Shown: positions 2,653-59,364, numbered from the stretch's first letter. The stretch is 64,000 nt of DNA from Tannerella sp. (GCF_030528505.1 NZ_JAUMYS010000001.1:16547-80546); one strand, 5' to 3'. The notes: generated by a model from the sequence alone, not told the origin. Translations and numbers: made by a program.

Positions 2653-2665
2653 GAAATCTTTTCTA

Positions 2666-4072: not shown

Positions 4073-4075
4073 GGC

Positions 4076-8300: not shown

Positions 8301-8399
8301 CTGTTCCTGTATTATATAATGTATGCAAATTCTGCCTCTCTTTGTAAGTCCTTCCACCCGAGAACTTCCATATTTTGTTTCGTGTATCACGGCAGGTCT

Positions 8400-8560: not shown

Positions 8561-8849
8561 AACCGTTTACGTGTACAAAGATAGAAAATTACCCATAGCT
8601 CCTTTACAGTAGCTGCCGAAAAAGTTTTCAACAAATCCACAATCAATGTATTGATGCAGCTTCTAACGATTTTTTGGAGAATAAAGCGGTGCAGACAGAG
8701 GGTTACAGTAGGCAAAGAACAAGAGAATCACGGGTATTTTTGATCGAAGGTGCCCCAAATAACAATTCCTGCCCTAAGCCCTTCGAAGGCTTTAGACAGG
8801 AATGTTTTCTCGCGCCTGACAGGCGGGCGCGTGTAATTTTTCAGAGGGG

Positions 8850-9251
8850 TTATACTCCGCTGAGCTTCGAGCGGATTCGTGCAGCCACTTCTGCCAACTG
8901 TTCGGATGTCGGTTCGAGCTTTTCCTTCCCGAAGTGCATGTCGGACTCTTTCTGCATAGGTACCAGATGGATGTGCGCATGCGGCACTTCCAGTCCGATA
9001 ACGGTCACCCCGATGCGCTTGCAAGGAATAGCCTGTTTCTGCGCGGATGCGATTTTCTTGGCGAAAGCCATCATGCGTCCCAACCGTTCGTCGTCGATAT
9101 CGAAAAGATAATCGATTTCTTCCTTGGGGATGACAAGCGTATGTCCTTCGGCCAAAGGACGAATATCGAGAAAAGCGAAAAATTCATCGTTTTCTGCGAT
9201 CTTGTGGCACGGTATTTCACCGTTGACGATTTTGCTGAAAATAGTAGCCAT
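8850..9251 (-). CDS. HIT-family (histidine triad) nucleotide hydrolase
   Basis: The HAHIHLVP histidine triad motif is present. The likely start is MATIFSKIVNGEIPCHKI (9251) rather than the track start at 9290. Confidence 0.85.
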   Translation of the reverse strand: MATIFSKIVNGEIPCHKIAENDEFFAFLDIRPLAEGHTLVIPKEEIDYLFDIDDERLGRMMAFAKKIASAQKQAIPCKRIGVTVIGLEVPHAHIHLVPMQKESDMHFGKEKLEPTSEQLAEVAARIRSKLSGV

Positions 9252-43194: not shown

Positions 43195-43197
43195 GAA

Positions 43198-44373
43198 TCA
43201 ACTCAGTTTTTTGATGAAAGCCCTTCGTGTTTTATGATGCTCGCGTTTGAAATAATCCCATTGTGCCTGCACGGCCGTATTCGTTTCCAGCTCGATGTTG
43301 CTCTCTGCGTACTCCGCTCCCAACTTGATGTATTCGGGGATAAGATCGCAGAAAAGAAGAGCATTGACTCCTTTGTTCTGATATTCGGGCAGGATACCCA
43401 TCAAATACAGATCGACAATTTTTGTTTTCGAGTGCATCGCTTTGAGCAGCGGAATGAAACCGAACGGGAACAGTCGTCCTTTGGCTTTTTGCAAGGCATG
43501 CGAAAGACTGGGGAGCGAGATGCCGAACCCGACTACCGTATCGTCTTCTTCGCGTACGATCAATGTGACCAGATTAAGACGCAACATCGGGATATATATT
43601 TTGGCGTAGTAATCGATCTGTTTCGAGGTCAACTCAGAAAACCCGTAAAGCGGAGCGAACGACGCGTTCAACGTTTCGAAGACTTTGCGCGCATACGGCT
43701 GAATGTCTTTCCTCCTCTTGAATTTTAATACTTTGAGGCCGTATTTCTTTTTCACGATTTCGGCGATGCGCAGATGTTTTTCGGGGATCGCGTCGGGGAT
43801 ATAAATTTTAAACTCGTGCCAGTCCTGATCTTTCACGTAGCCCATCCGCTCCATGTGTTGCGGATAATACGGAAAGTTATAGATCGTCGCCATCGTACCG
43901 AGCTGGTCGAACCCTTCGATCAGCATCCCTTCGTGATCCATATCCGTAAAGCCCATCGGTCCGTGAATTGCCTCCATGCCTTTAGCCTTGGCCCATCCTT
44001 CTACGGCATGAAACAGCGCATCGACGACTTCCGGATCGTCGATAAAGTCGACAAATCCGAAGCGTGCATGTTTCTGTCCCCATGTCTTGTTGCTCGCATG
44101 AACAATGATCCCGGCAATCCGCCCCACGATTTTATTATCCTTATACGCTAAAAAATAGATTGCTTCGCTGTTTTCAAAAGCAGGATTCTTCTCTTTCGAT
44201 AAAGTAATCATTTCTTCCTCGATCAGTCCGGGAACATGATATGGGTTGCCTTTGTATAAATCGATATTGAACTTGACGAAGTTCTTCAGATCTTTTTTTG
44301 TCGTTACTTCTTTAATTGATACACTCATATTCGCACCTGCTGTAAACGTTCTTCCGTTTTTTTTAAGCGACAA
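43198..44373 (-). CDS. GNAT-fold acyltransferase-like protein, substrate unknown
   Basis: The 391 aa protein has a C-terminal region with GNAT-like motifs (LMGILPEYQNKGVNALL). Confidence 0.45.
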   Translation of the reverse strand: MSLKKNGRTFTAGANMSVSIKEVTTKKDLKNFVKFNIDLYKGNPYHVPGLIEEEMITLSKEKNPAFENSEAIYFLAYKDNKIVGRIAGIIVHASNKTWGQKHARFGFVDFIDDPEVVDALFHAVEGWAKAKGMEAIHGPMGFTDMDHEGMLIEGFDQLGTMATIYNFPYYPQHMERMGYVKDQDWHEFKIYIPDAIPEKHLRIAEIVKKKYGLKVLKFKRRKDIQPYARKVFETLNASFAPLYGFSELTSKQIDYYAKIYIPMLRLNLVTLIVREEDDTVVGFGISLPSLSHALQKAKGRLFPFGFIPLLKAMHSKTKIVDLYLMGILPEYQNKGVNALLFCDLIPEYIKLGAEYAESNIELETNTAVQAQWDYFKREHHKTRRAFIKKLS

Positions 44374-44389
44374 ATGTAGTGATTTTAAT

Positions 44390-45883
44390 TTAGACCGGTG
44401 TTGTTTTTTTGAAAAGCGAGAGCAGTAACTCCTCGATAGAGGCTCTCATCCGGCGGCTTTTTCCCGTGAAGTTATTGACTAATATCACAACGGCATAGCG
44501 CTTACCGTTGTGGTCCATATATCCGCCATAACACAGGACACGGCTCATGCTACCGCTTTTCAGTCGTGCTTTTCCCTGCAACGAGCTTCCCTTCATCATA
44601 TTTCGTAATGTGCCGTCTATCCCTGCTCGCGGCAACGAATGCACGAAGGCCTCCGATGCTTTCGAGCGCAAGGCCATGTAAGTATATACGTCGCACAGGA
44701 ATTCGGCCGTTACTTTGTTGGTAATGGCCAGACCGCTCCCGTCGAACATCCAGAGCGAAGAGGAATCGATCCCTTTCTGCTTCCAATACTGCGTAACGAC
44801 CTGTGCTCCTCTTCCGAAAGAAGAGATCGCCTCTTTCGAGGAAGGAGCGTAACGCAACCCGAGCGTTTTGAACACGGCGTCGGCATACAGGTTATGGCTG
44901 ACGAAACAAAATATGCGGGCGAGGTCCTTGAGGGGAGGCGAATAAGTCGTGATCAAAGTCTTGCGAGTCGTCTCTTTCCACTGCCCCATCCGCGAGAGAA
45001 TGCGATGACATGAAGGAGCGCCTTGGATACGAATACCTTCGCGCTGAAAAAAAGCATGGACGTAGCGGGCCGCAAAAAGCGCCGGATCGGGAATGTCGGC
45101 CGTCAGCTTGAAATGGGAGCGGCGCGCGGGGATCGCACCGTAAAGATAACGTTCGTCGGAGAAAGGAAATCCTGTGATAAAGCAACTGTCGGCAGGTGCC
45201 GGAACAGCTTTGACGTAGTTGTGAAACGTGAGAGACGGCATGTCCGGTTCACAGTATTTAATCGTCGGCGTTGTGCCGGCTACACCGCTTTCAAGGTACA
45301 GACGGAACCGATTGTCGAAGATGTTCAGCCCATAGCTGCCCTGTCCGTATTCGCTTCCAAGGTCTTCACGCATCCATTTCATCGATACGCCTTCGGTATC
45401 GAAAATACTTTCGTCCACAATCAGCGCTCCCGTAACTTCGCGGATGCCGGCCTTGCGGATGGCTGCCGACCAGAGTCTAAGGATACTGTCTTTCGGGGTA
45501 TCAAGCTCGGACGAGTTGAGCGTAGGGTCTCCACTTCCGCAAAGGTATAAGTTGCCGCGCAGGATGCTGTCACGAATCTCTCCATCGTACGAAACAGACG
45601 TCTCGAAACGGAAGTCTTCACCCAGTATCTCGAGAGCCGTGGCGGCCGTGACGGTTTTCATGACTGAGGCAGGTATCAGCTGACGTTCACTTTCATACTC
45701 GTATACAACAGTCCCTTTGTTTACTTCTTTCACCATCAATGCGACGGATGCTCCTCGAACCATCGGTTTGTCTAAGAAACGTTTCAGTGGAGCAGGAACG
45801 GACTGGGAGAAGAGCGTCTGTGTACCGAAGCAAAGACATGCGACCCAAATAATCATCCGCTGATGAATCATGATTTTTCTCAT
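44390..45883 (-). CDS. dacB: D-alanyl-D-alanine carboxypeptidase/endopeptidase (PBP4, S13 family)
   Basis: The SxxK active site (PASVMKTVTAATAL) is present. The signal peptide is MIIWVACLCFGTQTLFSQ. The track start at 46006 is probably over-extended. Confidence 0.8.
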   Translation of the reverse strand: MRKIMIHQRMIIWVACLCFGTQTLFSQSVPAPLKRFLDKPMVRGASVALMVKEVNKGTVVYEYESERQLIPASVMKTVTAATALEILGEDFRFETSVSYDGEIRDSILRGNLYLCGSGDPTLNSSELDTPKDSILRLWSAAIRKAGIREVTGALIVDESIFDTEGVSMKWMREDLGSEYGQGSYGLNIFDNRFRLYLESGVAGTTPTIKYCEPDMPSLTFHNYVKAVPAPADSCFITGFPFSDERYLYGAIPARRSHFKLTADIPDPALFAARYVHAFFQREGIRIQGAPSCHRILSRMGQWKETTRKTLITTYSPPLKDLARIFCFVSHNLYADAVFKTLGLRYAPSSKEAISSFGRGAQVVTQYWKQKGIDSSSLWMFDGSGLAITNKVTAEFLCDVYTYMALRSKASEAFVHSLPRAGIDGTLRNMMKGSSLQGKARLKSGSMSRVLCYGGYMDHNGKRYAVVILVNNFTGKSRRMRASIEELLLSLFKKTTPV

Positions 45884-46010
45884 TTTATATACATATTTAG
45901 AGGCAAAGATATGAAAATGAAAAAAGAAATCTGGAAAAATTGCAGCATTAGTTGTTTTTCTAAAAAAAAGCATTACCTTTGCACTCGCATTAAAAAAGTA
46001 CTTCAAGGTA

Positions 46011-46083
46011 GATTCGCTAGCTCAGCAGGTAGAGCACATCCCTTTTAAGGATGGGGTCCTGGGTTCGAGCCCCAGGCGAATCA
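46011..46083 (+). tRNA. tRNA-Lys (anticodon UUU)
   Basis: A cloverleaf was folded by hand. The acceptor stem is GATTCGC/GCGAATC. The anticodon stem CATCC/GGATG carries loop CTTTTAA. The T-arm is CTGGG-TTCGAGC-CCCAG and the discriminator is A. No CCA is encoded. Confidence 0.9.
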
Positions 46084-46089
46084 CGCCGA
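46074..46089 (+). repeat. attL-like direct repeat (tRNA-Lys 3' end): GGCGAATCACGCCGAG
   Basis: A second copy, GGCGAATCACTCCGAA (14 of 15 identical over GGCGAATCACxCCGA), lies at 57428-57443 at the far end of the AT-rich island. Confidence 0.55.
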
Positions 46090-46091
46090 GG

Positions 46092-46135
46092 CAAATCCCT
46101 GATAATCGAGCATTATCAGGGATTTGCTGTTTTAT
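46092..46135 (+). terminator. perfect 15-bp-stem hairpin plus T-run immediately after tRNA-Lys (island-borne terminator)
   Basis: CAAATCCCTGATAAT-cgagc-ATTATCAGGGATTTG is followed by CTGTTTTAT. Confidence 0.5.
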
Positions 46136-46208
46136 AGCGGTGTGAATGTTAGGAAGATAGAATATTGAATAATTCTGAAAAAACACGTTTCAAGGAAGAG
46201 TAAAAGAA

Positions 46209-47399
46209 ATGACTTCGGTAAAAATAAAATTCAGAAAATCGACTATTAAGGATAAGGAAGGCGTACTTTATTTTCAATTAATTCATAGTCGTAAGACCAA
46301 ACTGATTACAACTCGTTTTCGTCTATTCCCTTGCGAGTGGGATACTCATTTAGAATCTGTGGTAGCAGATAAATCATCTAGTGAGAGAGGCGTTTACTTA
46401 AAGACCCTTAAAGACGGTTTAGAAAAAGAGATTAGACAGATTTATGAGCTAATATCTGTATTAGAAAACAGAGGAGAGTATACAATAGAGGAATTAGTAG
46501 AACATTATGTAAATAATTCTTTTGATGGCTATTTTTTTTCTTTTATAAAGTGTCAGATTAAAAGGCTAAAATCTGAAAATCGAATTAAAACGGCATCGAT
46601 ATGTGAGACAGCATATCGGAGTTTTTCCAGATTCAGGCGTGGAGAAGACATTTGGATTAAAAAGATAGACAACGTGCTAATCAACAAGTATGAAGCTTAT
46701 TTGATAAATAATAATGTGTGCAGAAATACTGTTTCTTGTTATATGAGATCATTAAGGTCAATATATAATCAGGCAATGCGCAAGGGGGTGGCCGTTTCAA
46801 ATAACCCATTCAGAGATGTCTATACAGGTGTTGACAAAACATCTAAAAAGGCTGTGAATGAATCTGTAATTTTGGAGTTGTGCAAACTTGAACTTTCTAA
46901 GCAAGTCAATTTAGAAATAGCACGAGATATTTTCATGTTTAGTTTTTATACAAGAGGCATGTCTTTTATAGACATGGCTAATCTCAGACAAAGTAACCTT
47001 AAAAATGGCTATATCATTTATTCTCGGAGCAAGACCAAACAAGTTTTGTCTATTAAAATTGAGAAATGTATTGAAGAAATCATAGAGAGGTATAGGTACC
47101 TAACTATAGATAACTACATACTTCCTATATACAATAAAAAGAACTGTAATTATATCAGCCACCTGCGCACATACAATAAACGATTGAAACGATTATCTGA
47201 AATGATGGAGTTAGAGAAACCGTTGAGTTCTTATGTAGCAAGGCATTCATGGGCTACAATAGCATTTCGAAAAGGGATATCTGTGCAAGTTATCAGTGAA
47301 GGGATGGGACACGAGGACGAAAAAACAACACGTATCTATTTGGCTTCTATGGATCAGTCTATTATAGATAACGCAAATGCTCAAGTCATAGCATTATAG
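46209..47399 (+). CDS. int: tyrosine-type site-specific integrase (Bacteroidetes phage-integrase family)
   Basis: The C-terminal catalytic residues are present: ARHSWAT (HxxR) and GHEDEKTTRIYL (the nucleophilic Tyr). The N-terminal arm-binding and SAM-like domains are present. Confidence 0.9.
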   Translation: MTSVKIKFRKSTIKDKEGVLYFQLIHSRKTKLITTRFRLFPCEWDTHLESVVADKSSSERGVYLKTLKDGLEKEIRQIYELISVLENRGEYTIEELVEHYVNNSFDGYFFSFIKCQIKRLKSENRIKTASICETAYRSFSRFRRGEDIWIKKIDNVLINKYEAYLINNNVCRNTVSCYMRSLRSIYNQAMRKGVAVSNNPFRDVYTGVDKTSKKAVNESVILELCKLELSKQVNLEIARDIFMFSFYTRGMSFIDMANLRQSNLKNGYIIYSRSKTKQVLSIKIEKCIEEIIERYRYLTIDNYILPIYNKKNCNYISHLRTYNKRLKRLSEMMELEKPLSSYVARHSWATIAFRKGISVQVISEGMGHEDEKTTRIYLASMDQSIIDNANAQVIAL

Positions 47400-47832
47400 T
47401 AGTTATAAAAGAAGGACTACCTCTTCTTTAGAGGTGGTACTTTATCAGAAAAATAAATTCTCCGCAAAGATAGAAAATAATTTTTAATAATAGATTGCTG
47501 ATAAATGTATTTTTTTACATGAGATGCAACTTTTGCTTTTTTCTCAATAAAAAAGCATGTTTTTCAGCGTGTTTACACAAATGTTTAAAAAAAATATATT
47601 TAAAATCGATGCAATAGATAAATATCGATTGATTTTGTGTTCAATTACAAATAATATAAAAATACTTCCTTGTTATTGTTTTACAAATCTGTTTTAAAAT
47701 CCTTCTTCAAAATCGAAAAAAAGCAACAAGACGCCAATAACCAATATAATACAAAAAAAGTCTATTTGAGTACCACCTCTAAAGAAGAGGAGGTATAAAA
47801 AAATACTTATTAATAATTTAAATTAAAGTGTT

Positions 47833-48408
47833 ATGGCAATTAACTTACAAAAGGGTCAAAAAATAGATATTGGCCTAACAAGAATGAGTGTAGGATTAGG
47901 GTGGAATCCAAACGAAGGGACTGGTTTTGATTTTGATTTGGATGCTTCTGCATTCATGATAGACACAAACAGACAAATACCATCGGAACCTTATTTTGTT
48001 TTTTATGGAAATACAGATTCTCCGGATGGGGCTTTGCATCACACAGGAGATGATCCTACAGGAGGTAATAGTGAGGATGGAGATGATGAAACCATCGAGG
48101 TTGATTTGTCAAAAATTGATAGTCGTATCAATGAAATTTTATTTGTAGTAACTATCCATGAAGCGATACAAAGAAAACAAAACTATGGACAAGTTCGCAA
48201 TTCATACATCCGGATCGTTGACGATTCAACTGGTAAAGAAATAGCAAAATACGAATTAGGAGAGGATTTCTCAATTGAGACAGCTGTTGAATTCGGGAGG
48301 CTTTATAAAAAAGATGGTAAATGGAAATTTGAAGCATCTGGAATTGGTTATAAAGAAGACTTGGCATTCTTTCTATCGAAATATTATAAAGGAAAAATCA
48401 TAAAATGA
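47833..48408 (+). CDS. TerD-domain stress protein (copy 1)
   Basis: MAINLQKGQKIDI...VGLGWN...FDLDASAFMID is present. The Ca2+-binding-type acidic motif TGDDPTGGNSEDGDDETIEVDL is present. Confidence 0.85.
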   Translation: MAINLQKGQKIDIGLTRMSVGLGWNPNEGTGFDFDLDASAFMIDTNRQIPSEPYFVFYGNTDSPDGALHHTGDDPTGGNSEDGDDETIEVDLSKIDSRINEILFVVTIHEAIQRKQNYGQVRNSYIRIVDDSTGKEIAKYELGEDFSIETAVEFGRLYKKDGKWKFEASGIGYKEDLAFFLSKYYKGKIIK

Positions 48409-48414
48409 GAAAAC

Positions 48415-49086
48415 ATGGCAATTAATTTACAAAAAGGTCAGACCATCGATCTGCGCAAAAATGATAAAGGGGAAGACGTGTATAATTTATCTTCTGTTAC
48501 AATCGGGCTGGGTTGGGATGTCCGTAAAAAAGGAAGCGGATTATTAGGAAAACTTTTTGGAGAGAGAGAAGATGAGTATGATCTTGATGCTATTGCATTC
48601 TTATTAGATCGCAATGGAAAAGTGGCTGATCTTGGACGGACAGTTCATGTTGGTGGAAGACAGGTTATTTTATATCAGGGAGATGTTATTTATTTTAATT
48701 CAATGAAACACCCTTCGGGTCATATTTGGTTAACAGGAGACAATAGAACTGGAGACGGTGATGGGGATGATGAGCAAATCATTGTTAAATTGGATTCATT
48801 GGATGAAAAGTTTCAGAAAATTCTATTTGTCGTTTCTATTTATCAAGGGAAACAGAAAAATCAACATTTCGGGATGGTTGAAAACGCTTTTATCAGGGCA
48901 GTTGATGCGAGAGGAAAAGAGATTACAAGGTATAATTTATCAGGTGATTATACAATGAACGGTATGTGCTCGATGGTTTTTGCTGAAGCATATCGGAAAG
49001 ATGGCGGTTGGAAATTCAGAGCTATTGGAGAGCCATACCAGACAGACAGTTTTGTCGAAATCCTGAGAAAATATATTTACCAATAA
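48415..49086 (+). CDS. TerD-domain stress protein (copy 2)
   Basis: MAINLQKGQTIDL...IGLGWD... is present. TGDNRTGDGDGDDEQIIVKL matches the canonical TerD GDN(R)TGEGDGDDE motif. Confidence 0.85.
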   Translation: MAINLQKGQTIDLRKNDKGEDVYNLSSVTIGLGWDVRKKGSGLLGKLFGEREDEYDLDAIAFLLDRNGKVADLGRTVHVGGRQVILYQGDVIYFNSMKHPSGHIWLTGDNRTGDGDGDDEQIIVKLDSLDEKFQKILFVVSIYQGKQKNQHFGMVENAFIRAVDARGKEITRYNLSGDYTMNGMCSMVFAEAYRKDGGWKFRAIGEPYQTDSFVEILRKYIYQ

Positions 49087-49096
49087 TTCAGAAACC

Positions 49097-49735
49097 ATGA
49101 GAAGACTTCCTGTATATTTATTATTAGATACATCTGGTTCCATGTGTGGTGAACCGATTGAGGCTGTAAAAAACGGTGTACAAGTCATGATAAGTTCGCT
49201 ACGGCAAAACCCGCAAGCGCAAGAAACAGCTTTCTTAAGTATTATCACCTTCGACAGTTCCGCGAAGCAAATTATTCCTTTAACTGATTTAGGGTCATTT
49301 CAGATGGTGGATATAAAGGCAAGTGGAACAACGGCTTTGGGTGAAGCCTTGAAACTCGTCAGTAATTGTATCGACAATGAAGTCGCTAAAACAACCTCAG
49401 AAACAAAAGGTGATTGGAAGCCATTGGTTTTTATAATGACTGATGGGAATCCAACCGATGATTGGCAAAATGGCTTGACTGAATTAAAAAAGCGGAAAAT
49501 AGCATTCACTGTTGCTTGTGCTGCTGGTAGTGGAGCAGACACAAATATTTTAAAACAGATTACAGACAATGTAGTCAGCTTGGATACAGCCGACAGTCAA
49601 AGTATTTCCAAATTTTTTGCTTGGGTTACTGCTTCCATTGGTGTTTCATCAACAAAAATAGAAGATTGTGGCAAAGAAGTAGTCGGATTGAATGAACTGC
49701 CCCCTCCTCCTTCGGAATTAAATATCGTCGTATAA
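49097..49735 (+). CDS. TerY-like von Willebrand factor A (vWA) domain protein, paralog 1
   Basis: MRRLPVYLLLDTSGSMCGEPIEAV is a MIDAS DxSxS motif. The stop overlaps the start of paralog 2 (TAATG). Confidence 0.8.
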   Translation: MRRLPVYLLLDTSGSMCGEPIEAVKNGVQVMISSLRQNPQAQETAFLSIITFDSSAKQIIPLTDLGSFQMVDIKASGTTALGEALKLVSNCIDNEVAKTTSETKGDWKPLVFIMTDGNPTDDWQNGLTELKKRKIAFTVACAAGSGADTNILKQITDNVVSLDTADSQSISKFFAWVTASIGVSSTKIEDCGKEVVGLNELPPPPSELNIVV

Positions 49736-50370
49736 TGAGGAGACTGCCGGTTTATTTTCTGTTGGATACATCCGGGTCAATGAATGGAGAACCTATTCAA
49801 GCCCTTAATAATGCGCTAAGTGGCATGATAAATTCATTGCGTTCCGATGCTTGCGCATCGGAAACGCTTTGGGTAAGCATTATTACATTTGATAAAGAGA
49901 TAAAAGAAATCTTACCATTAACAGAGCTGCCCTCACTGCAATTACCTGAAATTGTTTGCCCTCCAAGTGGCCCAACTTTCACAGGGAAAGCTCTTGAGCT
50001 ATTATGCCAGAAAGTCTCTATGGACGTGAGAAAAGGAACTCCTATACAAAAAGGTGATTGGCGCCCATTATTATTCATCTTTACAGATGGAAAACCCTCG
50101 GATTTACAATTATATTCAGAAATGATTCCAAGGATAAAGATGTTGAATTTTGGAGCGATAATTGGGTGTGCTGCGGGTGATTGGGCTGATGATTCCAAAT
50201 TGAACGAGTTATGTGATTCAGTAGTGCATTTAGAGACTTCTGACAGTAATACCTTAAAACAGTTTTTCAGATGGGTCTCGGATACAATCGAGCAAGGAAA
50301 TAAGAGTATGGGAGTAACAGATATGGTAGCACTCCCTCCAGCTCCATCAGAAGTACATTTAGTCATATAA
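49735..50370 (+). CDS. TerY-like vWA domain protein, paralog 2
   Basis: MRRLPVYFLLDTSGSMNGEPIQAL is present. This protein is a paralog of the preceding gene. Confidence 0.8.
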   Translation: MRRLPVYFLLDTSGSMNGEPIQALNNALSGMINSLRSDACASETLWVSIITFDKEIKEILPLTELPSLQLPEIVCPPSGPTFTGKALELLCQKVSMDVRKGTPIQKGDWRPLLFIFTDGKPSDLQLYSEMIPRIKMLNFGAIIGCAAGDWADDSKLNELCDSVVHLETSDSNTLKQFFRWVSDTIEQGNKSMGVTDMVALPPAPSEVHLVI

Positions 50371-50398
50371 ATGTCCGATTTTTAAATGTGTAAATATT

Positions 50399-51439
50399 AT
50401 GAGACGATTACCAATATATTTTTTAATTGATGTTTCCGAATCAATGGTGGGAACACCTGTTCAGCAGGTGGAAGAAGGCTTAGAAACCATTATTCAAGCA
50501 TTGAAAACAGACGCCAATGCCATAGAAACAGTATGGGTTTCCATTATTGTATTTGCAGGTCGGTCAAAAACACTTATTCCTTTGCAAGAGATTGTTAATT
50601 TCTACCCTCCAAAATTTCCGATTGGAAGTGGTACTTCTTTGAGCAATGGTTTAGGGCATCTAATGTATGAACTACGGAAAAATACAATCAAAACAACCAC
50701 TGAACAAAAAGGTGATTGGAAGCCTATTGTTTTCTTGTTTACGGATGGTGTGCCTACCGATGAAACTAAGCCAGCAATAGCAGAATGGAAAAGTAACTGG
50801 CAAAGGGCGGCAAATTTAATCGCTGTTTCATTTGGAGATGAAACAGACAACCATCTACTTGGTGAATTAACTGACAATGTGCTTCAATTCAGAAATACCG
50901 ACGCTTCTGCATACAAGCAGTTTTTCAAATGGGTTACCGATTCGATTAAAACTAGTAGCGCAAGCGTTGAGAATAATACATTAGGATTTGAACTAGCCCA
51001 ATTAGATGGAGAAACTATTTCCAGAATTGACTTGACAAAAGAAATCTCAAAACCAAGAGTAGATGAAAACTTTGTAATATTAGCTGCAAAATGTCAAAAT
51101 ACAAAGCGTCCTTATCTGATGAAATACAGGAAAAATGTTTTTGTACATGATTCGGGAGATATAGGGCTTAATTACAGGCTAGTCGGAGCTTTTCAAGTCG
51201 ATAATTCATACTTTGAACTTTCAGAGGAATCTGTACCCAATTATAAAATAAATACCGACAAATTAATCGGTGCACCGACTTGTCCTTGGTGTGGAAATCA
51301 ATTCGCCTTTGCAGTATGTGGCTGTGGAAAAATTCATTGTATTGGTAGCGAAAAAATCAGTACTTGCCCTTGGTGCGCAAGCCAAGGAACTTATGGACTC
51401 GGTGAAGGTGGCATTAATGTCAATAGAACACAAGGATAA
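50399..51439 (+). CDS. TerY-like vWA domain protein, paralog 3, with C-terminal extension containing a 4-Cys zinc-ribbon-like motif
   Basis: MRRLPIYFLIDVSESMVGTPVQQV is present. The C-terminus CPWCGNQFAFAVCGCGKIHCIGSEKISTCPWCASQG contains the zinc-ribbon-like motif. Confidence 0.75.
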   Translation: MRRLPIYFLIDVSESMVGTPVQQVEEGLETIIQALKTDANAIETVWVSIIVFAGRSKTLIPLQEIVNFYPPKFPIGSGTSLSNGLGHLMYELRKNTIKTTTEQKGDWKPIVFLFTDGVPTDETKPAIAEWKSNWQRAANLIAVSFGDETDNHLLGELTDNVLQFRNTDASAYKQFFKWVTDSIKTSSASVENNTLGFELAQLDGETISRIDLTKEISKPRVDENFVILAAKCQNTKRPYLMKYRKNVFVHDSGDIGLNYRLVGAFQVDNSYFELSEESVPNYKINTDKLIGAPTCPWCGNQFAFAVCGCGKIHCIGSEKISTCPWCASQGTYGLGEGGINVNRTQG

Positions 51440-51440
51440 G

Positions 51441-52895
51441 ATGGAAATAGCAAAATCATACATTCAATCTCTTTTTAAGACAAAAGGAGTTGTTATACAG
51501 CAAGATAGGATTGGCTTATTAAATGAGTTTATAGAAAGCAACTCAAATATAGCAGCTGTAAGACAAATTATTGATATTCAGAACATGCTAATGGATAAAT
51601 GGAAATTAAAAAATAGGATAGAAGACATTATTGCACAACAAATTAGCATACCGAATGCAACTGTTAACAAGCCATATCAGGCAAGAATTGATTTTCAGCA
51701 ATTAAAGTTAACAGACTTGTCTGAATTCGATGTTGATGGATTCTCTAAATCAGGGTTGACTTACGATAAGGAAAAACAAACAATTACAGGAATTCCCATA
51801 CAAAGCGGTGATGTTAAAATCAGGCTATTATTTAAAGTAAAAGGAGAAAGCGAAAATGAGCTCTTACACGAAAAAGTAATTTCCCTTATCATTAATCCTG
51901 ACCCTAAAACACTTTGGAAAGATATTCCGAGCGATGAAAGTGCTGTTTTTTGGAAAAAAGATGATGACTATAATTTCAGTCAATTAGGAGAAAAGCATAT
52001 TGTTGTTGCTTCTAAGAGAGGCCGCTCTCATAAGAATATCGGTTCCTTCCGCGATGACGATTTTGCTTTCAAATACTATAAAAATACTGGTTGGTCGATA
52101 GTTGCTGTTGCCGATGGCGCTGGAAGTTGTACCTTATCAAGGCAAGGATCAAAAATTGCTTGCCATGCCGTGATTGACCATTTTGAACAAACAGAAGATC
52201 TCAATCTTGATAAAGAATTTGAACACAAAATAAAGGAGTTTATCCAAACTAAAGATGAAGCGATATGGAGAGAATCGGAAGTTTTGTCAAAACATATTTT
52301 ATACAAAGCAACCACATTTGCACATAGTAAAATCCGGGAAGCAGCAATAAAAACCTATCAGGATAACCCTGAACTATTTAATAATCCGAAGGCTAAAAGT
52401 CCATTGGATTATTTTCACTCAACTCTAATATTCGCTTTGTATAAAAGGTATGAGTTAGGATACCTTATTCTTACTTTTAGTGTTGGAGACTGTCCAATTG
52501 CAGTAATGAATAAGAATCAAACAGAGGTATCCTTGCTTAACTGGTTGGATATTGGTGAATTTGGAGGAGGGACACGATTCATTACTCAATCTGAAATTTT
52601 TCATTCCAGTGAATACCCAATGGCTTCTCGGTTCAACTTTCATCTTATTCCAGATTTTTCCTATCTGTTTTTGATGACTGACGGAATTTATGATCCTAAG
52701 TTTGTTGTGGAAGCAAACCTTGAGAAACACGAAAAGTGGATGGATTTTTTAAGTGATTTAAGTGGGAACAATGAAGAGTGTGTAAAGGTTGAGTTCAATC
52801 CTGATAATAAGGAAATAGAGGGCCAGTTGCTACAATGGATGAACTTTTGGAGTCCGGGGAATCATGATGATAGAACCTTAGCTGTCATTTTTTAA
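51441..52895 (+). CDS. PP2C-family Ser/Thr protein phosphatase with ~190 aa N-terminal domain of unknown function
   Basis: The PP2C motifs VAVADGAGS, SVGDCPIAV and FLMTDGIYD are present. The ATG at 51441 follows the TAA of the upstream gene by 1 nt. The track ORF (from 51270) reads back into the upstream gene. Confidence 0.75.
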   Translation: MEIAKSYIQSLFKTKGVVIQQDRIGLLNEFIESNSNIAAVRQIIDIQNMLMDKWKLKNRIEDIIAQQISIPNATVNKPYQARIDFQQLKLTDLSEFDVDGFSKSGLTYDKEKQTITGIPIQSGDVKIRLLFKVKGESENELLHEKVISLIINPDPKTLWKDIPSDESAVFWKKDDDYNFSQLGEKHIVVASKRGRSHKNIGSFRDDDFAFKYYKNTGWSIVAVADGAGSCTLSRQGSKIACHAVIDHFEQTEDLNLDKEFEHKIKEFIQTKDEAIWRESEVLSKHILYKATTFAHSKIREAAIKTYQDNPELFNNPKAKSPLDYFHSTLIFALYKRYELGYLILTFSVGDCPIAVMNKNQTEVSLLNWLDIGEFGGGTRFITQSEIFHSSEYPMASRFNFHLIPDFSYLFLMTDGIYDPKFVVEANLEKHEKWMDFLSDLSGNNEECVKVEFNPDNKEIEGQLLQWMNFWSPGNHDDRTLAVIF

Positions 52896-52912
52896 TTTAT
52901 CAAAGAACGAAT

Positions 52913-54430
52913 ATGAACACAAGAACTGTTTCGTCAATCATTACGGGTAAAACGTATCAATATGTAGATAATGGAGAGCCTATGCGGGGAGGAATGAAAG
53001 ATGTTTTTTTTAGTCCGGATAAGTCTTATGTGGTTGCTTTCTATAGAGACTTACAAGATTTTAACTCCAGGGAACGATTAAAAAAAATTGTGACCCAGTA
53101 TTTTGACAGTTTCTTCAACAAAGAAGGCGGGAGCTACTACAAAAACCTATATACTTGGCCTACAGATGTAGTAGAAGCAGATAAAAAAGTGGGAATCATT
53201 GTTCCGTGTTATAGCCGAAATTTTTTTTTCAAAAAAGGATATGCAAACAATGACCTATTAAAAGGAAAAGAAAAAGAAGGAAAATGGTTTGCGAGTGCAA
53301 AATTCAGGGTCATTCAATCCAAGTCGAAATTGGATGAATCCGAATTGGGGAATTGGCTAAGTTATTTTCAGATATGTGTAAACATAGCTAGAGGAGTAAA
53401 AAGATTACATGCAGCAGGCTTGGCTCATTCTGATTTATCCTATAAAAATGTATTAATTGACCCGATAAGTAAAACAGCTGCTATTATTGATATCGATGGA
53501 CTTGTTGTGCCGGGTCTATTTCCTCCTGATGTTATAGGAACGGCTGATTTTATAGCTCCTGAAGTGTTAGCGACAAAACATTTAGACAAAAATGACCTAA
53601 ACAGAAAATTACCGAATCGCTTAACAGACTTGCATGCTTTGGCTGTACTAATATACATGTATTTGCTCTATCGGCATCCTCTTCGTGGTGGCAATTATTT
53701 TGGAGCTGTAGAGTCTGAGGAAGAAGAAGATTTATTGATGGGCTCAAAAGCTTTGTTTATTGAGCATCCAACAGATGCAAGCAATCGGAATTTCAAACGA
53801 GAATATGGTGATAACCTCACAAAATTTTATCCCTGGACAGATTTGAAGAAAACTCCATATACTATCACAGGGCCATATTTAAAGGCACTATTTGACCAAG
53901 CATTTATTAAAGGTTTACATAACCCGATTGAAAGACCTACTGCAGATGCTTGGGAGCATGCACTGATTAAAACCAATGATTTGAAGCTCCAATGTAGTAA
54001 TCCGAGATGCGGGCAAAAATGGTTTATTTATAATAATACAAAAGATACCCATTGTCCGTTTTGCGGAACAAAATATAATCAATCAATCCCGGTGTTGGAT
54101 TTTTTCTATCAGTTCAAACCAAGTGTTTGGAAACCGGATAATCAACGATTGGTTGTTTACAATAATTCTACTTTGCATCAATGGCATTCCAACCGAAATG
54201 TAATTAGGAATGAAAAGCTAACTGATGCACAAAAAGCAAGGGTTGGATATTTCTCTTATTTCAATAACAAATGGTTCTTTGTTAACGAGAAGTTATCTTC
54301 ATTAAAGGATCTGACGGAGGACAGATTGATTCCAGTGGGCTCAATGGTGGAAATCACCAACGGAAAGAGACTGTTGCTTCTAAAAGAAGAAGGGGGGAGA
54401 GTCGCTATCGTATCACTTACAAATAACTAA
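52913..54430 (+). CDS. atypical Ser/Thr protein kinase with C-terminal zinc ribbon
   Basis: The catalytic loop HSDLSYKNVLID (HRDLKxxN-like) is present. DIDG stands in for DFG. The APE motif (FIAPEVL) is present. The C-terminus CSNPRCGQKWF...CPFCGTKY contains the zinc ribbon. Confidence 0.75.
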   Translation: MNTRTVSSIITGKTYQYVDNGEPMRGGMKDVFFSPDKSYVVAFYRDLQDFNSRERLKKIVTQYFDSFFNKEGGSYYKNLYTWPTDVVEADKKVGIIVPCYSRNFFFKKGYANNDLLKGKEKEGKWFASAKFRVIQSKSKLDESELGNWLSYFQICVNIARGVKRLHAAGLAHSDLSYKNVLIDPISKTAAIIDIDGLVVPGLFPPDVIGTADFIAPEVLATKHLDKNDLNRKLPNRLTDLHALAVLIYMYLLYRHPLRGGNYFGAVESEEEEDLLMGSKALFIEHPTDASNRNFKREYGDNLTKFYPWTDLKKTPYTITGPYLKALFDQAFIKGLHNPIERPTADAWEHALIKTNDLKLQCSNPRCGQKWFIYNNTKDTHCPFCGTKYNQSIPVLDFFYQFKPSVWKPDNQRLVVYNNSTLHQWHSNRNVIRNEKLTDAQKARVGYFSYFNNKWFFVNEKLSSLKDLTEDRLIPVGSMVEITNGKRLLLLKEEGGRVAIVSLTNN

Positions 54431-54443
54431 AATAAACATCATC

Positions 54444-57320
54444 ATGGAACGAAAACATCATTTCACAGGCTTAACCAATGAAAAAGTACTTGAGAGCAGG
54501 GAAAAACATGGTACTAATGTATTAACCCCACCAGAGAAAGAACCTTTATGGAGGCTCTTTGTGGAAAAATTTGAAGACCCCATCATTCGGATATTGTTAA
54601 TAGCAGCATTTCTATCATTAGGAATTTCCTTTGTGCATTGGGAATTTGCTGAAACTATCGGTATTTTTTGTGCAATATTTTTGGCAACGGGTGTTGCTTT
54701 CTGGTTTGAATTAGATGCCAACAAGAAATTCGACGTATTAAATCAAGTTAATGATGATGCTTTGGTAAAAGTAATTCGAAATGAGCTTGTTTGTGAAGTA
54801 CCCAAAAAAGATATCGTGGTTGGCGACATTGTAATTCTTGGAACAGGTGAAGAAGTACCTGCGGATGGAGAGTTATTAGAGGCTGTTTCCTTGCAAGTAG
54901 ATGAATCATGCTTGACCGGTGAACCAATGATTGATAAAACAACCAATCCCTCCGATTTCCAATCGGAAGCTACCTATCCATCTAATTGGGCGATGCGTGG
55001 AACCAAAGTGATGGATGGACATGGAATTTTAGAGATAAAGAGAGTTGGAGATTCAACTGAATATGGAAAAGTTGCTGAAAAATCAACAGAAATGACAAGA
55101 GAAGAGACACCTCTTAACCAACAACTTGACAAGCTGGCTAAATTTATAGGTGTAGTTGGATTTATTCTTGCCACTCTTACCTTTTTTGCTTTGTTTATTA
55201 AAGATATATGTTTAGGAACGACCACTTTTACAATGGCACAACTTGGCTCGATTGGAATTATACTTGTTTCCGCAATGGTAGTACTTGTTAAAGTTTGGGT
55301 TCCTATTATTTATGACGCTTTTGAATTATGTGGAAAGACTAAAGAAGTTCCCCAGTGTATTGATGAAAGAAGTTGGTTACAATGGATAGGGCTGGGAGGA
55401 GGAATCTTCATTGTTTTATCTGTTATGGGGTTTGCTTTCGGAATAAATCCATTGCATACAGAATCGTGGATTAGTTTAGATGCTGCTGGGCGTATTCTAC
55501 AATACTTCATGGTAGCTGTAACCTTGATAGTAGTGGCTGTTCCTGAAGGGTTACCAATGAGTGTAACGCTAAGTTTGGCTTTAAGTATGCGCCGAATGCT
55601 TCAGAACAATAACTTAGTTAGAAAAATGCATGCTTGTGAGACAATGGGAGCTACTACTGTTATTTGTACTGATAAGACAGGTACGCTTACTCAAAATCAG
55701 ATGAAGGTTTATGAAACTCAATTCTTTGCTCTTGATAATCAATCTTTATCAAATAGCGAGTTAAGTAATCTCATAAAAGAAAGTATATCTGTCAATTCAA
55801 CTGCTTATCTTGATTCTTCCCAACCACAAAAAATTAAATCTATAGGTAATCCTACGGAAGCGGCATTGTTATTGTGGCTATATAATCAACAAGTCAATTA
55901 TTTGGATATACGAGAAAGTGTCGAAATTATTGACCAGCTAACCTTTAGCACCGAACGTAAATATATGGCAACACTGATTAATTCTCCTTTATTGAATAAG
56001 AAAGTGCTATATGTAAAAGGAGCACCTGAAATTGTACTTTCAAAATCAGATAATGTACTATTTAAATCAGGTAAGAAATCTATTTCCGATTCAGAAAAGC
56101 AAATAGAAGAGTTATTATTACAATACCAGAATCAAGCTATGCGAATACTTGGATTCGCTTATGAAATTATTGAAGATGATATGCCTCGCTTCGAAAATGG
56201 GAATTTAGTCAATATAAATCTTACATATTTGGGACTTACAGCAATCTCTGACCCTGTTCGTGAAGATGTTCCTATGGCAGTAGATGAATGTTTAAATGCA
56301 GGCATTCAAGTTAAAATTGTTACCGGAGACACACCGGGAACCGCGAGAGAAATTGGTCGTCAAATTGGAATATGGAATGAAAGCGATAAACTTCATAACA
56401 TCATTACCGGAACAGAGTTTGAAAGACTGTCGGATGAAGAAGCTCTTAAACGGATAAAACATCTAAAAATAATGTGCCGTGCACGTCCAACCGATAAGCA
56501 AAGACTCGTACAGTTATTACAGCGCTCAGGTGAAATTGTTGCTGTAACGGGAGATGGTACTAATGATGCTCCTGCTCTAAACTATGCACAAGTTGGTTTA
56601 TCAATGGGTAGTGGCACATCTGTGGCTAAAGAAGCCAGTGATATTACTTTGCTGGATGATTCCTTCAAAAGTATAGCTTCGGCCGTTATGTGGGGGCGTT
56701 CACTTTATCAGAATATACAACGTTTTATTCTGTTTCAGTTAACCATTAATGTAGCAGCCTTGGTTATCGTGCTGCTTGGATCGATATTGGGTTATGAATT
56801 GCCTCTTACTGTGACTCAAATGCTGTGGGTTAATTTAATTATGGATACTTTTGCTGCCGGAGCGTTGGCTTCATTACCCCCTAATGAGAAAGTGATGGAT
56901 AATAAGCCGCGTAAAAATGACGCTTTTATCATTACACCTGCAATGCGATTCAATATCTTATTTGTTGGTTTTTCGTTCGTTGCACTTTTATTGGGTCTAT
57001 TATTTATATTCACAGAGAATGGAGTAGTTAACCCATATGACTTATCACGTTTCTTTACTATCTTTGTCATGTTACAATTCTGGAATATGTTTAACGCAAA
57101 AGCGTTTCTTACACGAAAGTCTGCTTTTTCAAATATAAAAAACTGTATCGGGTTTATTCTGGTTGCAATTGTGATTTTGGTTGGTCAGGTCCTAATCGTT
57201 GAATTTGGAGGAAAAGTATTCCGCACTGTGCCACTTTCTCTAAAAGATTGGGGTATAATTATAGGGGCGACTTCATTCGTATTATGGATTGGAGAAATAG
57301 TACGATTTACTAAAAAATAA
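54444..57320 (+). CDS. P-type ATPase, Ca2+-transporting type (P2A/P2B-like)
   Basis: DKTGTLT, TGDGTNDAPAL and the TM4 PEGLP motif (VAVPEGLPMSVTLSLA), characteristic of Ca2+ pumps, are present. The protein is 958 aa. Confidence 0.9.
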   Translation: MERKHHFTGLTNEKVLESREKHGTNVLTPPEKEPLWRLFVEKFEDPIIRILLIAAFLSLGISFVHWEFAETIGIFCAIFLATGVAFWFELDANKKFDVLNQVNDDALVKVIRNELVCEVPKKDIVVGDIVILGTGEEVPADGELLEAVSLQVDESCLTGEPMIDKTTNPSDFQSEATYPSNWAMRGTKVMDGHGILEIKRVGDSTEYGKVAEKSTEMTREETPLNQQLDKLAKFIGVVGFILATLTFFALFIKDICLGTTTFTMAQLGSIGIILVSAMVVLVKVWVPIIYDAFELCGKTKEVPQCIDERSWLQWIGLGGGIFIVLSVMGFAFGINPLHTESWISLDAAGRILQYFMVAVTLIVVAVPEGLPMSVTLSLALSMRRMLQNNNLVRKMHACETMGATTVICTDKTGTLTQNQMKVYETQFFALDNQSLSNSELSNLIKESISVNSTAYLDSSQPQKIKSIGNPTEAALLLWLYNQQVNYLDIRESVEIIDQLTFSTERKYMATLINSPLLNKKVLYVKGAPEIVLSKSDNVLFKSGKKSISDSEKQIEELLLQYQNQAMRILGFAYEIIEDDMPRFENGNLVNINLTYLGLTAISDPVREDVPMAVDECLNAGIQVKIVTGDTPGTAREIGRQIGIWNESDKLHNIITGTEFERLSDEEALKRIKHLKIMCRARPTDKQRLVQLLQRSGEIVAVTGDGTNDAPALNYAQVGLSMGSGTSVAKEASDITLLDDSFKSIASAVMWGRSLYQNIQRFILFQLTINVAALVIVLLGSILGYELPLTVTQMLWVNLIMDTFAAGALASLPPNEKVMDNKPRKNDAFIITPAMRFNILFVGFSFVALLLGLLFIFTENGVVNPYDLSRFFTIFVMLQFWNMFNAKAFLTRKSAFSNIKNCIGFILVAIVILVGQVLIVEFGGKVFRTVPLSLKDWGIIIGATSFVLWIGEIVRFTKK

Positions 57321-57427
57321 TTCAGGCTTGTTTCTAGTAAAATTATCAGAGATATGATATTTATTGGCTTCTAAAAAATAAGATAGTTAAGGGATAAATG
57401 CCGATGCTATTTTTTTAATTGGATAAA

Positions 57428-57443
57428 GGCGAATCACTCCGAA
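57428..57443 (+). repeat. attR-like direct repeat GGCGAATCACTCCGAA
   Basis: This copy is paired with the repeat at 46074-46089. Confidence 0.55.
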
Positions 57444-57446
57444 ACG

Positions 57447-57486
57447 AAGAGGGTGTATCAAAACGCAATGTTTGGGCACACCCTCT
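57447..57486 (+). terminator. hairpin (AAGAGGGTGT...ACACCCTCTT) immediately after attR, probably the original tRNA-Lys terminator displaced by the insertion
   Basis: The 10-bp stem follows directly after the partial tRNA 3' end copy. The hairpin is seen in the sequence; the displacement model is inference. Confidence 0.4.
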
Positions 57487-57596
57487 TTAGGTGTGTAAGA
57501 ATGGGTGAAATTGGGGGGCGCTAAGGATGAGAGCGAGGGAGCATACTAATGTATGTGACCGAGCTCACATTCCGCAAGCAACGAAGCAGTACGCCC

Positions 57597-57860
57597 GTTA
57601 TGACACACCGCATTTGCTGTTTTGTCCAACAGCCCACAGGCATAGCGTTCGGACCAATCAAACAGGGAGTGCTCCTATCTCCGGTGTAAGGCATCCGTAA
57701 TGACCGGAGAAGTCTCGAAACCCATATCCGCGACCCAAAGAAGGAGCAGGTCGGTCTCTCTATACCGTGCCTGCAAGACTTCAATTTTCAGCGCATCTGT
57801 TATCCTTCGGTCTATTACTTTGTCAAAATCATATTTTTCCATGATTTCCTTTCTTTTCAA
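57597..57860 (-). pseudogene. remnant of a PatB/MalY-family PLP C-S lyase (cystathionine beta-lyase-like), N-terminal ~60-85 codons only, interrupted by in-frame stops
   Basis: MEKYDFDKVIDRRITDALK...DLLLLWVADMGFETSPVITDALHRR is the PatB/MalY N-terminal signature. It is followed by a TAG, about 25 more in-frame codons (EHSLFDWSERYACGLLDKTANAV...), then a TAA. A full-length PatB is about 390 aa. Confidence 0.6.
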
Positions 57861-59053
57861 GTTGCCGCTCCGTCTTTTTTCTCGGTCAAGGCTTGCTGGA
57901 TATCCTCAAACAGATCATCCACATCCTCCAGACCGATAGAAAGTCGGATGGTCGTATCGAGTATATCCATGCTTTGCCTCTGTTTGTCGGAAAACAAACC
58001 AAAGATGGTGCTCGCAGGATGGATGGCAAGCGTTTTATTGTCAAACAGGTTCGTGGCACGACGGATCAATTTCAGTCGGTTGATGAAGTTGAAACATACC
58101 TCTTGACTTTCAAGCTCGATGGTCATCATAGCGCCTGCCGTAGGCCCGAACTGCTGCTGTGCCAAGGCATGGTACGGATTGTCTTCCAGTCCGACATAAT
58201 TGACGTGTCTGACTTCCGACAAGGTGCGAATTTTATGCGCCAGTAGAGCCGCGTTGGCGGACTGTATCCGGTAGCGTGCATCCAATGTTTCCAAACCGAG
58301 CGTATGCATATAGGCCACATGGGGAGTCATGTACGCGCCTATATTCAATAACATTTCGGTACGCATGCGTTTGCTGAATCCTGCGCATGTGCCATAATCG
58401 ATGACTAATCCGCCAATGGACGTTGCGCCTCCCGACAAATATTTGGTGCTGGAAACAACTTCAATATCTACTCCAAGTTTGTGCGAACTGAATTCTGTAA
58501 AAGGGATAAGAGTGGTGTCTGCTATCAGGGGAATTCCTTTTTCGCGGGCTATTTGCGAAAGAGCGCGCAGGTCTGCCACCTCCATCTGCGGATTCGTAAT
58601 AATCTCTAAAAAGATGCAACACGTATGCTCGTCTACCGCGTCTTTAACAGACTTGAGGTCGGTCAGATCACATAGTTTGGAATTTACTCCGAAGCGAGAT
58701 AGCGTTTTGGTAATCAGTGAATAGGTGTTGCCGAATAAATGGCGTGAGGTGACAATGTTCTTTCCAGCTGCCGCGATGGCCAGTAGCGTATTGCTGATAG
58801 CCGCCATGCCGGAGGTGAAGGCGATGACTTCGGCGGCATCGGTAAGAGACTTTACTTTGTTTTCGAAAAACGTCACGGTAGGATTCATCACTCTGGAATA
58901 GTCCGGAGCGTCTGTTCGCCCGCAAAAAGCATCCGTCATCTCGGCTGCATTGTCGAATTCATAGGATGCCGTGTGATAGACCGGCATGCTGAGCGCATTA
59001 TAGGTGTCCCGACGTTGAAATCGGGTATGGATTGCCTGAGTTTGCTTCTTCAT
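57857..59053 (-). CDS. Cys/Met-metabolism PLP-dependent enzyme (O-acetylhomoserine sulfhydrylase / methionine gamma-lyase family)
   Basis: The 398 aa protein has the N-terminus TQAIHTRFQRRDTYNALSMPVYHTASYEF and a PLP-lysine region around SSTKYLSGGATSIGG. Confidence 0.8.
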   Translation of the reverse strand: MKKQTQAIHTRFQRRDTYNALSMPVYHTASYEFDNAAEMTDAFCGRTDAPDYSRVMNPTVTFFENKVKSLTDAAEVIAFTSGMAAISNTLLAIAAAGKNIVTSRHLFGNTYSLITKTLSRFGVNSKLCDLTDLKSVKDAVDEHTCCIFLEIITNPQMEVADLRALSQIAREKGIPLIADTTLIPFTEFSSHKLGVDIEVVSSTKYLSGGATSIGGLVIDYGTCAGFSKRMRTEMLLNIGAYMTPHVAYMHTLGLETLDARYRIQSANAALLAHKIRTLSEVRHVNYVGLEDNPYHALAQQQFGPTAGAMMTIELESQEVCFNFINRLKLIRRATNLFDNKTLAIHPASTIFGLFSDKQRQSMDILDTTIRLSIGLEDVDDLFEDIQQALTEKKDGAAT

Positions 59054-59364
59054 TCTTTTGTTCTTGATATTGTAATGATAATCTTCTGTAAAATCTCGGC
59101 AAAAATAGAGCTAAAAAATGAAAGAAGGGGTTGGAAGTAGTCAAAGAATGAATATGGAGTAAGTTTTTTGGAATATTATTCTTTCAGGGAGTCTTATTCA
59201 TCCCGACAGAAGAAGATTATTCTGAAAAGAAGTCGTTATATAGATTGTTTTCTTGTTTTTTCATAGGGTCTTGGTCAATGATTCGTTTTGTCTTCACTTT
59301 GAGGCCCTTGAATAAAAGATAAAACATGAAGTTAAAATTATGGCAGTGATAAATGTTCGCTGCC

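Follow-up and report, generated by a model that had tools for sequence, protein, structure and literature searches.

The window analysed here, a 64,000-nt stretch of the Tannerella forsythia chromosome (NZ_JAUMYS010000001.1:16547-80546; positions below are counted from its first letter), carries an operon that, judged by its sequence, is a Bacteroidales member of a known and named gene architecture, the ter-linked TerY locus. The module consists, by family assignment, of two TerD proteins, three anciently diverged TerY proteins of the von Willebrand factor A (vWA) type, a PP2C phosphatase, and a Ser/Thr kinase of the Hanks type, within which lies a putative zinc ribbon. We read it, with a probability of about 85%, as a ter-locus TerX/TerY module, i.e., an expanded TerY-P triad gathered in one operon, with a proposed phosphorylation switch and a cation exporter as its output. 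The TerY-P triad (Anantharaman, Iyer & Aravind 2012; summarised in PMC11090510 and PMC4978471) comprises a TerY-like vWA protein, a PP2C phosphatase, and a Ser/Thr kinase that bears a zinc ribbon at its C-terminus.

Gene order and orthology of the TerY module

Gene families in the window were assigned with Pfam, with NCBIfam used in addition for the P-type ATPase. The eight genes of the operon are:

47833-48408, + strand, TerD-family protein 1 (TerD1), 191 aa (Pfam TerD, E = 4e-67)
48415-49086, + strand, TerD-family protein 2 (TerD2), 223 aa, TerX ortholog (Pfam TerD, E = 2e-56)
49097-49735, + strand, vWA1, TerY1 ortholog, 212 aa, metal ion-dependent adhesion site (MIDAS) DTSGS (Pfam VWA, alignment)
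49735-50370, + strand, vWA2, TerY2 ortholog, 211 aa, MIDAS DTSGS (Pfam VWA, alignment)
50399-51439, + strand, vWA3, TerY3 / TerY-C ortholog, 346 aa, MIDAS DVSES (Pfam VWA, PF15616)
51441-52895, + strand, PP2C phosphatase, 484 aa (Pfam PP2C_2)
52913-54430, + strand, Ser/Thr kinase, 505 aa (Pfam Pkinase)
54444-57320, + strand, PMCA-type calcium-translocating P-type ATPase, 958 aa (TIGR01517, Pfam)

All three vWA proteins begin with MRRLP(V/I)Y(L/F)L(L/I)D(T/V)S(G/E)SM, from which a preliminary description of the locus had concluded that the genes are paralogs, and pairwise alignment bears this out (44%, 38%, and 38% identity over ~190 residues; E = 5e-60, 1e-45, and 6e-43). Pfam VWA matches each of them, and the MIDAS residues (DxSxS, T79, and D116) are invariant in all three.

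To each copy corresponds a separate gene on ter plasmids. When 72,556 plasmids were searched by tblastn with the vWA3 protein as query, 2,320 plasmid records matched, dominated by Klebsiella, Escherichia, Enterobacter, and Salmonella; the matches are annotated as 'TerY-C metal binding domain-containing protein', and there are three match places per record in all 24 full-length matches listed. On the E. coli IncHI2 plasmid p2474-MCR1 the order is terW, vWA, TerD family, vWA, TerY-C protein, PP2C (545 aa), and kinase (499 aa), and the order on an Aromatoleum plasmid is the same. By BLASTP, vWA1, vWA2, and vWA3 are 64%, 48%, and 45% identical to their positional counterparts in E. coli and 60%, 50%, and 46% identical to those in Aromatoleum, and in the orthology matrix every positional pair exceeds all cross-pairs. 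The counterpart of vWA1 is the plasmid TerY beside terW, that of vWA2 is the middle TerY, and that of vWA3 is TerY-C, while TerD2 is 57-61% identical to TerX, the TerD gene located between the vWA genes (L001 and L002). Because each copy has its own plasmid ortholog, the triplication is ancient and part of the locus type; a recent or local triplication, considered as a candidate, was rejected, since Proteobacteria have a separate ortholog of every copy.

The same arrangement recurs in a survey of 82 loci, a subset of the 4,000+ homologs. A kinase profile supplied 80 genome loci, nearly all of them from Bacteroidota according to the record titles, and the 2 plasmids completed the set; the 5 closest-relative contigs were inspected apart from it. 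The order vWA-vWA-vWA+TerY_C-PP2C-kinase is found in 60 of the 82, and in every one of these 60 the vWA proteins at positions 1, 2, and 3 best match vWA1, vWA2, and vWA3 of the window. Twelve further loci have two vWA genes, six have a single vWA gene and no TerY-C, and the rest are incomplete contigs; TerD genes (1-5 copies) lie upstream in nearly all. The triplication, which had been presented as unusual, is thus the canonical terY3-terY2-terX-terY1 layout. The corresponding plasmid region is named terY3Y2XY1W (PMC6885840, PMC11003894) or terY-CYXYW (PMC12054061), and the full terY3Y2XY1W-ZABCDEF region belongs to IncHI2 plasmids (PMC6885840).

From TerD1 to the ATPase, the spacings between consecutive genes are 6, 10, -1, 28, 1, 17, and 13 nt, and the vWA, PP2C, and kinase genes, as in a TerY-P triad, are adjacent on the same strand with gaps of at most 28 nt. 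The preliminary description had singled out two junctions, both of which are confirmed: the vWA1 stop overlaps the vWA2 start by 1 nt (TAATG), and the vWA3 stop (51437-51439) is followed by 1 nt and then by the PP2C ATG at 51441. It further took both junctions to imply stoichiometric co-translation. The second is tight in most loci, with a vWA3-PP2C spacing of -4 to +10 nt in ~57 of 69; the vWA1/vWA2 overlap, by contrast, is present in just 6 of 60 and is lineage-specific, so a conserved role in setting stoichiometry or coupling the two genes was rejected for it.

Compared with the IncHI2 (R478, p2474-MCR1) and Klebsiella ter plasmids, the locus has the same eight domain types, including TerY_C, TerX, PP2C, and kinase, and the same vWA3-PP2C-kinase order; the IncHI2 PP2C protein carries the same helical and Ig-like N-terminal extension, and the IncHI2 kinase the same putative zinc ribbon and C-terminal beta domain. 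The differences are that TerX precedes TerY1 in the window whereas it lies between TerY1 and TerY2 on the IncHI2 plasmids; that the window has an extra TerD upstream and a PMCA-type Ca-ATPase after the kinase; that the long low-complexity linker seen in proteobacterial PP2C proteins is missing from its PP2C; that terW, terZABCDEF, and the ATP-grasp/phosphoribosyltransferase (PRTase) biosynthetic genes of the IncHI2 plasmids are absent from the 64 kb; and that the locus is chromosomal, on a probable tRNA-Lys island of a member of the Bacteroidales, whereas the IncHI2 version is on plasmids. With the minimal TerY-P triad the module shares the vWA and PP2C components, a kinase with a putative zinc ribbon, and the predicted metal-sensing phosphorylation switch. 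The minimal triad, however, has one vWA protein and is often attached to modules for restriction or DNA processing (McrBC/CoCoNuT, the H. pylori island), whereas the window has three, one of them with TerY-C, in the company of TerD proteins and a cation pump. Core order and domains are identical in the chromosomal TerD(n)-TerY x3-PP2C-kinase-TerC loci of Bacteroidota (Flavobacterium, Chitinophaga, Pedobacter; L005-L082), to whose kinases that of the window is 58-84% identical, and which often have 3-5 TerD genes and HAD, PRTase, or TelA neighbours.

Domains of vWA3, the kinase, and the phosphatase

The third vWA protein is longer by 134 residues, in agreement with the ~130 extra Cys-rich C-terminal residues first noted for it, and contains the motifs CPWCGNQF...CGCGKIHC...CPWCASQG. 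By profile match, this tail is the known Pfam family TerY_C (PF15616; E = 5.7e-46; score 156 bits, cutoff 28.4), with all 129 profile positions covered. The vWA domain spans residues ~1-200 and the TerY_C metal-binding domain residues 222-346 (51062-51436). Conservation of the Cys clusters in homologs, on which the preliminary description depended, is found for both proteins that carry them: eight Cys are invariant in an alignment of 71 TerY-C sequences, and four in an alignment of 81 kinases. At a ninth TerY-C position, 89% of the 71 sequences have Cys and the window has Trp. The first TerY-C knuckle (vWA3 residues 296-299; 51284-51295) reads CPWC in the window and in 1 other of the 71 sequences, compared with CPCC in 89%. 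Searched against PDB sequences, the TerY-C profile found no significant relative, the best match (E = 0.15) being spurious.

In the kinase, the catalytic domain (residues ~1-355) is followed by C361, C366, C381, and C384 (53993-54064) and by a C-terminal domain at residues 390-505 (54080-54427). The four Cys belong to the segment CSNPRCGQKWF...CPFCGTKY, with the pattern CX4C-X14-CX2C. The motif is as the preliminary description gave it, but the protein does not end there: the Cys lie at 361-384 of 505 and ~115 conserved residues come after them, so the ribbon is internal, not terminal. We accept residues 361-384 as a putative zinc ribbon because the Cys pattern is invariant and because a TerY-P kinase fused to a zinc ribbon has already been described (PMC11090510); profile matches of the ribbon are weak, at E = 0.08 to the COX5B zinc ribbon and E = 0.0015-0.5 to zinc-binding Pfam families. 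An AlphaFold2 (AF2) model, built on a narrow alignment whose members are 76-99% identical, has a mean predicted local distance difference test (pLDDT) score of 57, with 53-66 over the ribbon stretch and 73-93 over the all-beta C-terminal domain. A Foldseek search of this model against the PDB returned generic kinases, with no match that classifies the ribbon or the C-terminal domain, and the beta domain (390-505) had no Pfam match when the aligned kinases were scanned singly and no PDB sequence match. The catalytic motifs HSDLSYKN (HxDxxxxN), DIDG (DxDG), and APE are intact and invariant relative to the plasmid kinases (E. coli p2474-MCR1, Aromatoleum), to which the protein is 52-54% identical. 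The all-beta domain of ~115 residues is present in all 81 kinases, the plasmid ones included, and NCBI names for these proteins are 'helix-hairpin-helix domain-containing protein', 'kinase', and 'lipopolysaccharide kinase InaA family protein'.

Modelled by AF2 on a 52-sequence alignment (pLDDT 85), the phosphatase comprises three helices (residues 2-65), a beta-sandwich (72-151; 51654-51893), and the PP2C fold (175-484). By both sequence and fold similarity, residues 72-151 are a He_PIG / dystroglycan-type cadherin-like Ig domain, and the N-terminal part of the protein, at first described as having no obvious family, can therefore be assigned as a helical segment plus this domain. The metal-binding motifs (RGRSH, DDD, DGAG, DG, and DDR) are intact, and the protein is 31-32% identical to its plasmid counterparts. 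It should be noted that the PP2C frame is open from a GTG at 51270, 171 nt upstream of the ATG at 51441 and overlapping the end of vWA3, and that gene callers at times pick starts further upstream, giving a 500-aa product (P0001) and, in public calls for close relatives, products of 492-515 aa. We favour ATG 51441 because most homologs are 484 aa long. The varying starts reflect annotation inconsistency, not biology.

The calcium ATPase, a probable island, and a putative invertible promoter

In 50 of the ~80 loci surveyed, TerC lies directly 3' of the kinase. In the window, the gene starting 13 nt past the kinase stop instead encodes a protein that matches NCBIfam TIGR01517 with 654.6 bits (cutoff 507), and an ATPase likewise follows the kinase in L003, L004, L083 (11528-14419), L084, and L086 (11537-14422). 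In the closest relatives, which are T. forsythia, two Logan contigs, and two metagenome-assembled genomes (one from Bacteroidales and one from Parabacteroides), the slot holds a PMCA-type Ca-ATPase. L085, which is slightly more distant (kinase 86% identical), has retained TerC after the kinase. TerC has thus apparently been replaced by the Ca-ATPase in a Tannerella/Parabacteroides sublineage. TerC has been described as a metalation factor that exports Mn(II) (PMC12054061), and the replacement suggests, from genomic context, that the output of the module may be divalent-cation export.

The features that surround the operon, with the tRNA gene located by ARAGORN, are:

46011-46084, + strand, tRNA-Lys (UUU) (ARAGORN)
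46209-47399, + strand, tyrosine recombinase with Arm-binding, SAM-like, and catalytic domains (Pfam PF17293, PF13102, PF00589)
47400-47832, AT-rich spacer, 433 nt
47420-47790, strand not applicable, putative invertible promoter bounded by 22-nt inverted repeat arms
57427-57442, + strand, 15/16 copy of the tRNA-Lys 3' end (direct repeat)

Between 46 and 57.5 kb the G+C content drops from ~0.48 to 0.33-0.40, and the 3' end of the tRNA-Lys gene (AGGCGAATCACGCCGA, 46074-46089) recurs with 15 of 16 positions matching at 57427-57442. Another T. forsythia strain (L003; kinase 99% identical) is 96.9% identical to the window over 42914-57448, after which co-linearity breaks. From the low G+C, the repeat of the tRNA 3' end, and the synteny break at the right end, we place the locus on a probable integrated island of ~11.4 kb that starts at tRNA-Lys and has its right edge at 57427-57442. 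Relative to L003, the window has ~1.9 kb of extra sequence (57449-59358), with a 398-aa minus-strand open reading frame at 57857-59053. The tyrosine recombinase could be the integrase of the island, the invertase of the inverted-repeat cassette described below, or both.

A perfect 22-nt inverted repeat (CCTCTTCTTTAGAGGTGGTACT and its complement; 47420-47441 and 47769-47790, with 327 nt of AT-rich sequence between the arms) begins 20 nt past the recombinase stop and brackets the spacer that separates the recombinase gene from TerD1. This spacer has a single TAnnTTTG motif (the Bacteroides-type -7 element), TATCTTTG at 47465-47472, which is close to the left arm, on the minus strand, and points away from the operon. 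In L004, which has the same cassette with a 34-nt inverted repeat and the same ter cargo, TAACTTTG is found at the mirrored position, pointing toward the operon, and the segments of the window and L004 align better when one is flipped (15 vs 7; shuffles mean 4.3, maximum 10). The segment has the same orientation in all four T. forsythia assemblies, and L087 and L088, contigs with an identical TerD, agree with the window. The pattern is that of a putative invertible promoter, probably caught OFF in the four T. forsythia assemblies. Inversion of 47442-47768 would be expected to give the ON junction GATAA+AGTACCACCTCTAAAGAAGAGG+AGGTAT; a search of JGI metagenome contigs for the ON orientation with the exact arm-plus-flank pattern gave 0 matches, and a degenerate arm pattern retrieved one contig, L089, with a different cargo. 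A scan of the window for sigma-70 promoters and terminators gave the same counts as shuffled sequence and, for a Bacteroidota genome, is uninformative.

Known Bacteroidales invertons, served by a neighbouring tyrosine recombinase, likewise have a recombinase gene followed by a perfect inverted repeat around a ~320-nt promoter region upstream of an operon. The cargo in the window is a ter-type stress operon rather than surface polysaccharide or fimbrial genes, and the putative inverton has a single orientation across the four T. forsythia assemblies. L083 and L086 have neither the recombinase nor the inverted repeat. In L089 (JGI994J12354_10004060, 1624-9017), a recombinase 69% identical to that of the window and a 28-nt inverted repeat precede an unrelated operon of four genes, of which three encode proteins without a Pfam match and the fourth an 844-aa HSP70/MreB-like ATPase. 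Because the cassette stands before unrelated cargo there, the recombinase plus inverton looks like a portable regulatory cassette.

Proposed mechanism, alternatives, and implications

A metal-sensing phosphorylation switch has been predicted for TerY-P (PMC11090510). Applied to the present module, and taken with the known properties of the families, this published hypothesis would have the kinase phosphorylate a partner, for which the TerY proteins are the best candidates, and PP2C reverse the reaction; phosphorylation would gate the metal-dependent (MIDAS) binding by TerY. The trigger may be a divalent-cation or envelope stress signal, sensed or buffered by the TerD proteins, TerD being Ca-binding (Pan 2011, cited in PMC8123226), and the output would be coupled to a membrane cation exporter, TerC in most relatives and the PMCA-type Ca-ATPase in this sublineage. 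Several points weigh against this interpretation. The kinase domain is poorly modelled by AF2 (pLDDT 57), and the beta-3 lysine has no confident assignment. The ATPase could simply have been transferred along with the operon, with no functional link between the two. Finally, a phmmer search of the 64-kb window with queries from L001, L002, and L044 (E <= 1e-3) found no TerC, TerB, TerW, ATP-grasp, PRTase, StiP, HpcH, or TIGR00266 protein; since no other ter genes are present, the module would be self-contained here and work without its classical partners.

The preliminary description took the paired ribbons to imply association, and in this form TerY-C of vWA3 and the kinase ribbon would be a matched pair that joins the two proteins or binds the same nucleic acid or ligand. 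The invariance of both Cys clusters in the respective alignments and the close adjacency of vWA3, PP2C, and kinase in most loci speak for such a pairing, and nucleic-acid binding by the kinase ribbon has been speculated by analogy with OB-fold fusions (PMC11090510). The idea is weakened by the six loci with one vWA gene and no TerY-C (L029, L032-L036), all of which retain the C-terminal region of the kinase, with the four ribbon Cys invariant in the five kinases that were aligned, and by the CoCoNuT TerY-P triads, in which a zinc-ribbon kinase is combined with a plain TerY-like vWA protein (PMC11090510). Because the ribbon persists in both settings, TerY-C and the kinase ribbon are not an obligate pair, and with an AF2 confidence of 53-66 for the ribbon itself we regard a matched pair as doubtful.

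Also unlikely, if somewhat less so, is that the locus serves anti-phage defence as the TerY-P system of Gao et al. 2020 does, acting through abortive infection or effector signalling rather than cation homeostasis. TerY-P (vWA, phosphatase, and kinase) confers protection from T7-like phages (PMC7699616), CoCoNuT restriction systems of the McrBC type have TerY-P triads attached to them (PMC11090510), and both a low-G+C island beside a tRNA gene with a recombinase and a phase-variable promoter, common on defence loci, would suit such a role. On the other hand, the consistent partners of the module are TerD and TerC, the operon contains no nuclease, helicase, or other effector, its sole further gene being the Ca-ATPase, and in the defence-type kinase a C-terminal OB fold replaces the ribbon (PMC11090510), whereas the kinase of the window has a putative zinc ribbon and a beta domain. 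PADLOC (E <= 1e-3) gave no match to the vWA, PP2C, or TerD proteins, with the presence of a TerY-P model in the PADLOC set unconfirmed, and its matches to the kinase are weak and generic (best E = 9e-6, to PD-T4-6). A narrow determinant of tellurite or metalloid resistance would explain why orthologs lie in terY3Y2XY1W-ZABCDEF of IncHI2 plasmids (PMC6885840) and would be in line with the better survival of tellurite by fuller clusters (PMC11003894). However, of terBCDE(F), which suffices in E. coli (pLK18, PMC11003894), the window has only TerD-family genes, and no such stress is obvious in the oral niche of T. forsythia; with terB and terC both absent, we consider this explanation very improbable.

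The interpretation that we prefer, an expanded TerY-P triad within a ter-locus TerX/TerY module, builds on what is already known, namely the terXY/TerY-P layout, the Pfam families, and the gene names; less ordinary are the Ca-ATPase in the TerC slot and the putative inverton. The T. forsythia genes for TerX, TerY1-3, TerY-C, PP2C, and the kinase can now be annotated with confidence, and a compact stand-alone module of eight genes without terZABCDEF offers a cleaner system for studying the TerY/PP2C/kinase switch. That the Tannerella/Parabacteroides module has swapped TerC for the Ca-ATPase and sits behind an invertible promoter on a tRNA-Lys island is, taken as a whole, a tentative proposal to which we give clearly less than even odds. 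If the swap is functional, ter-type TerD/TerY signalling would have as its output the pumping of a divalent cation, either Ca2+ or Mn2+, out of the cell, and if the inverton is confirmed, a stress/metal module would join the phase-variable traits of the Bacteroidales. Were the proposal true, this oral pathogen would turn its capacity for cation export ON and OFF by phase variation.

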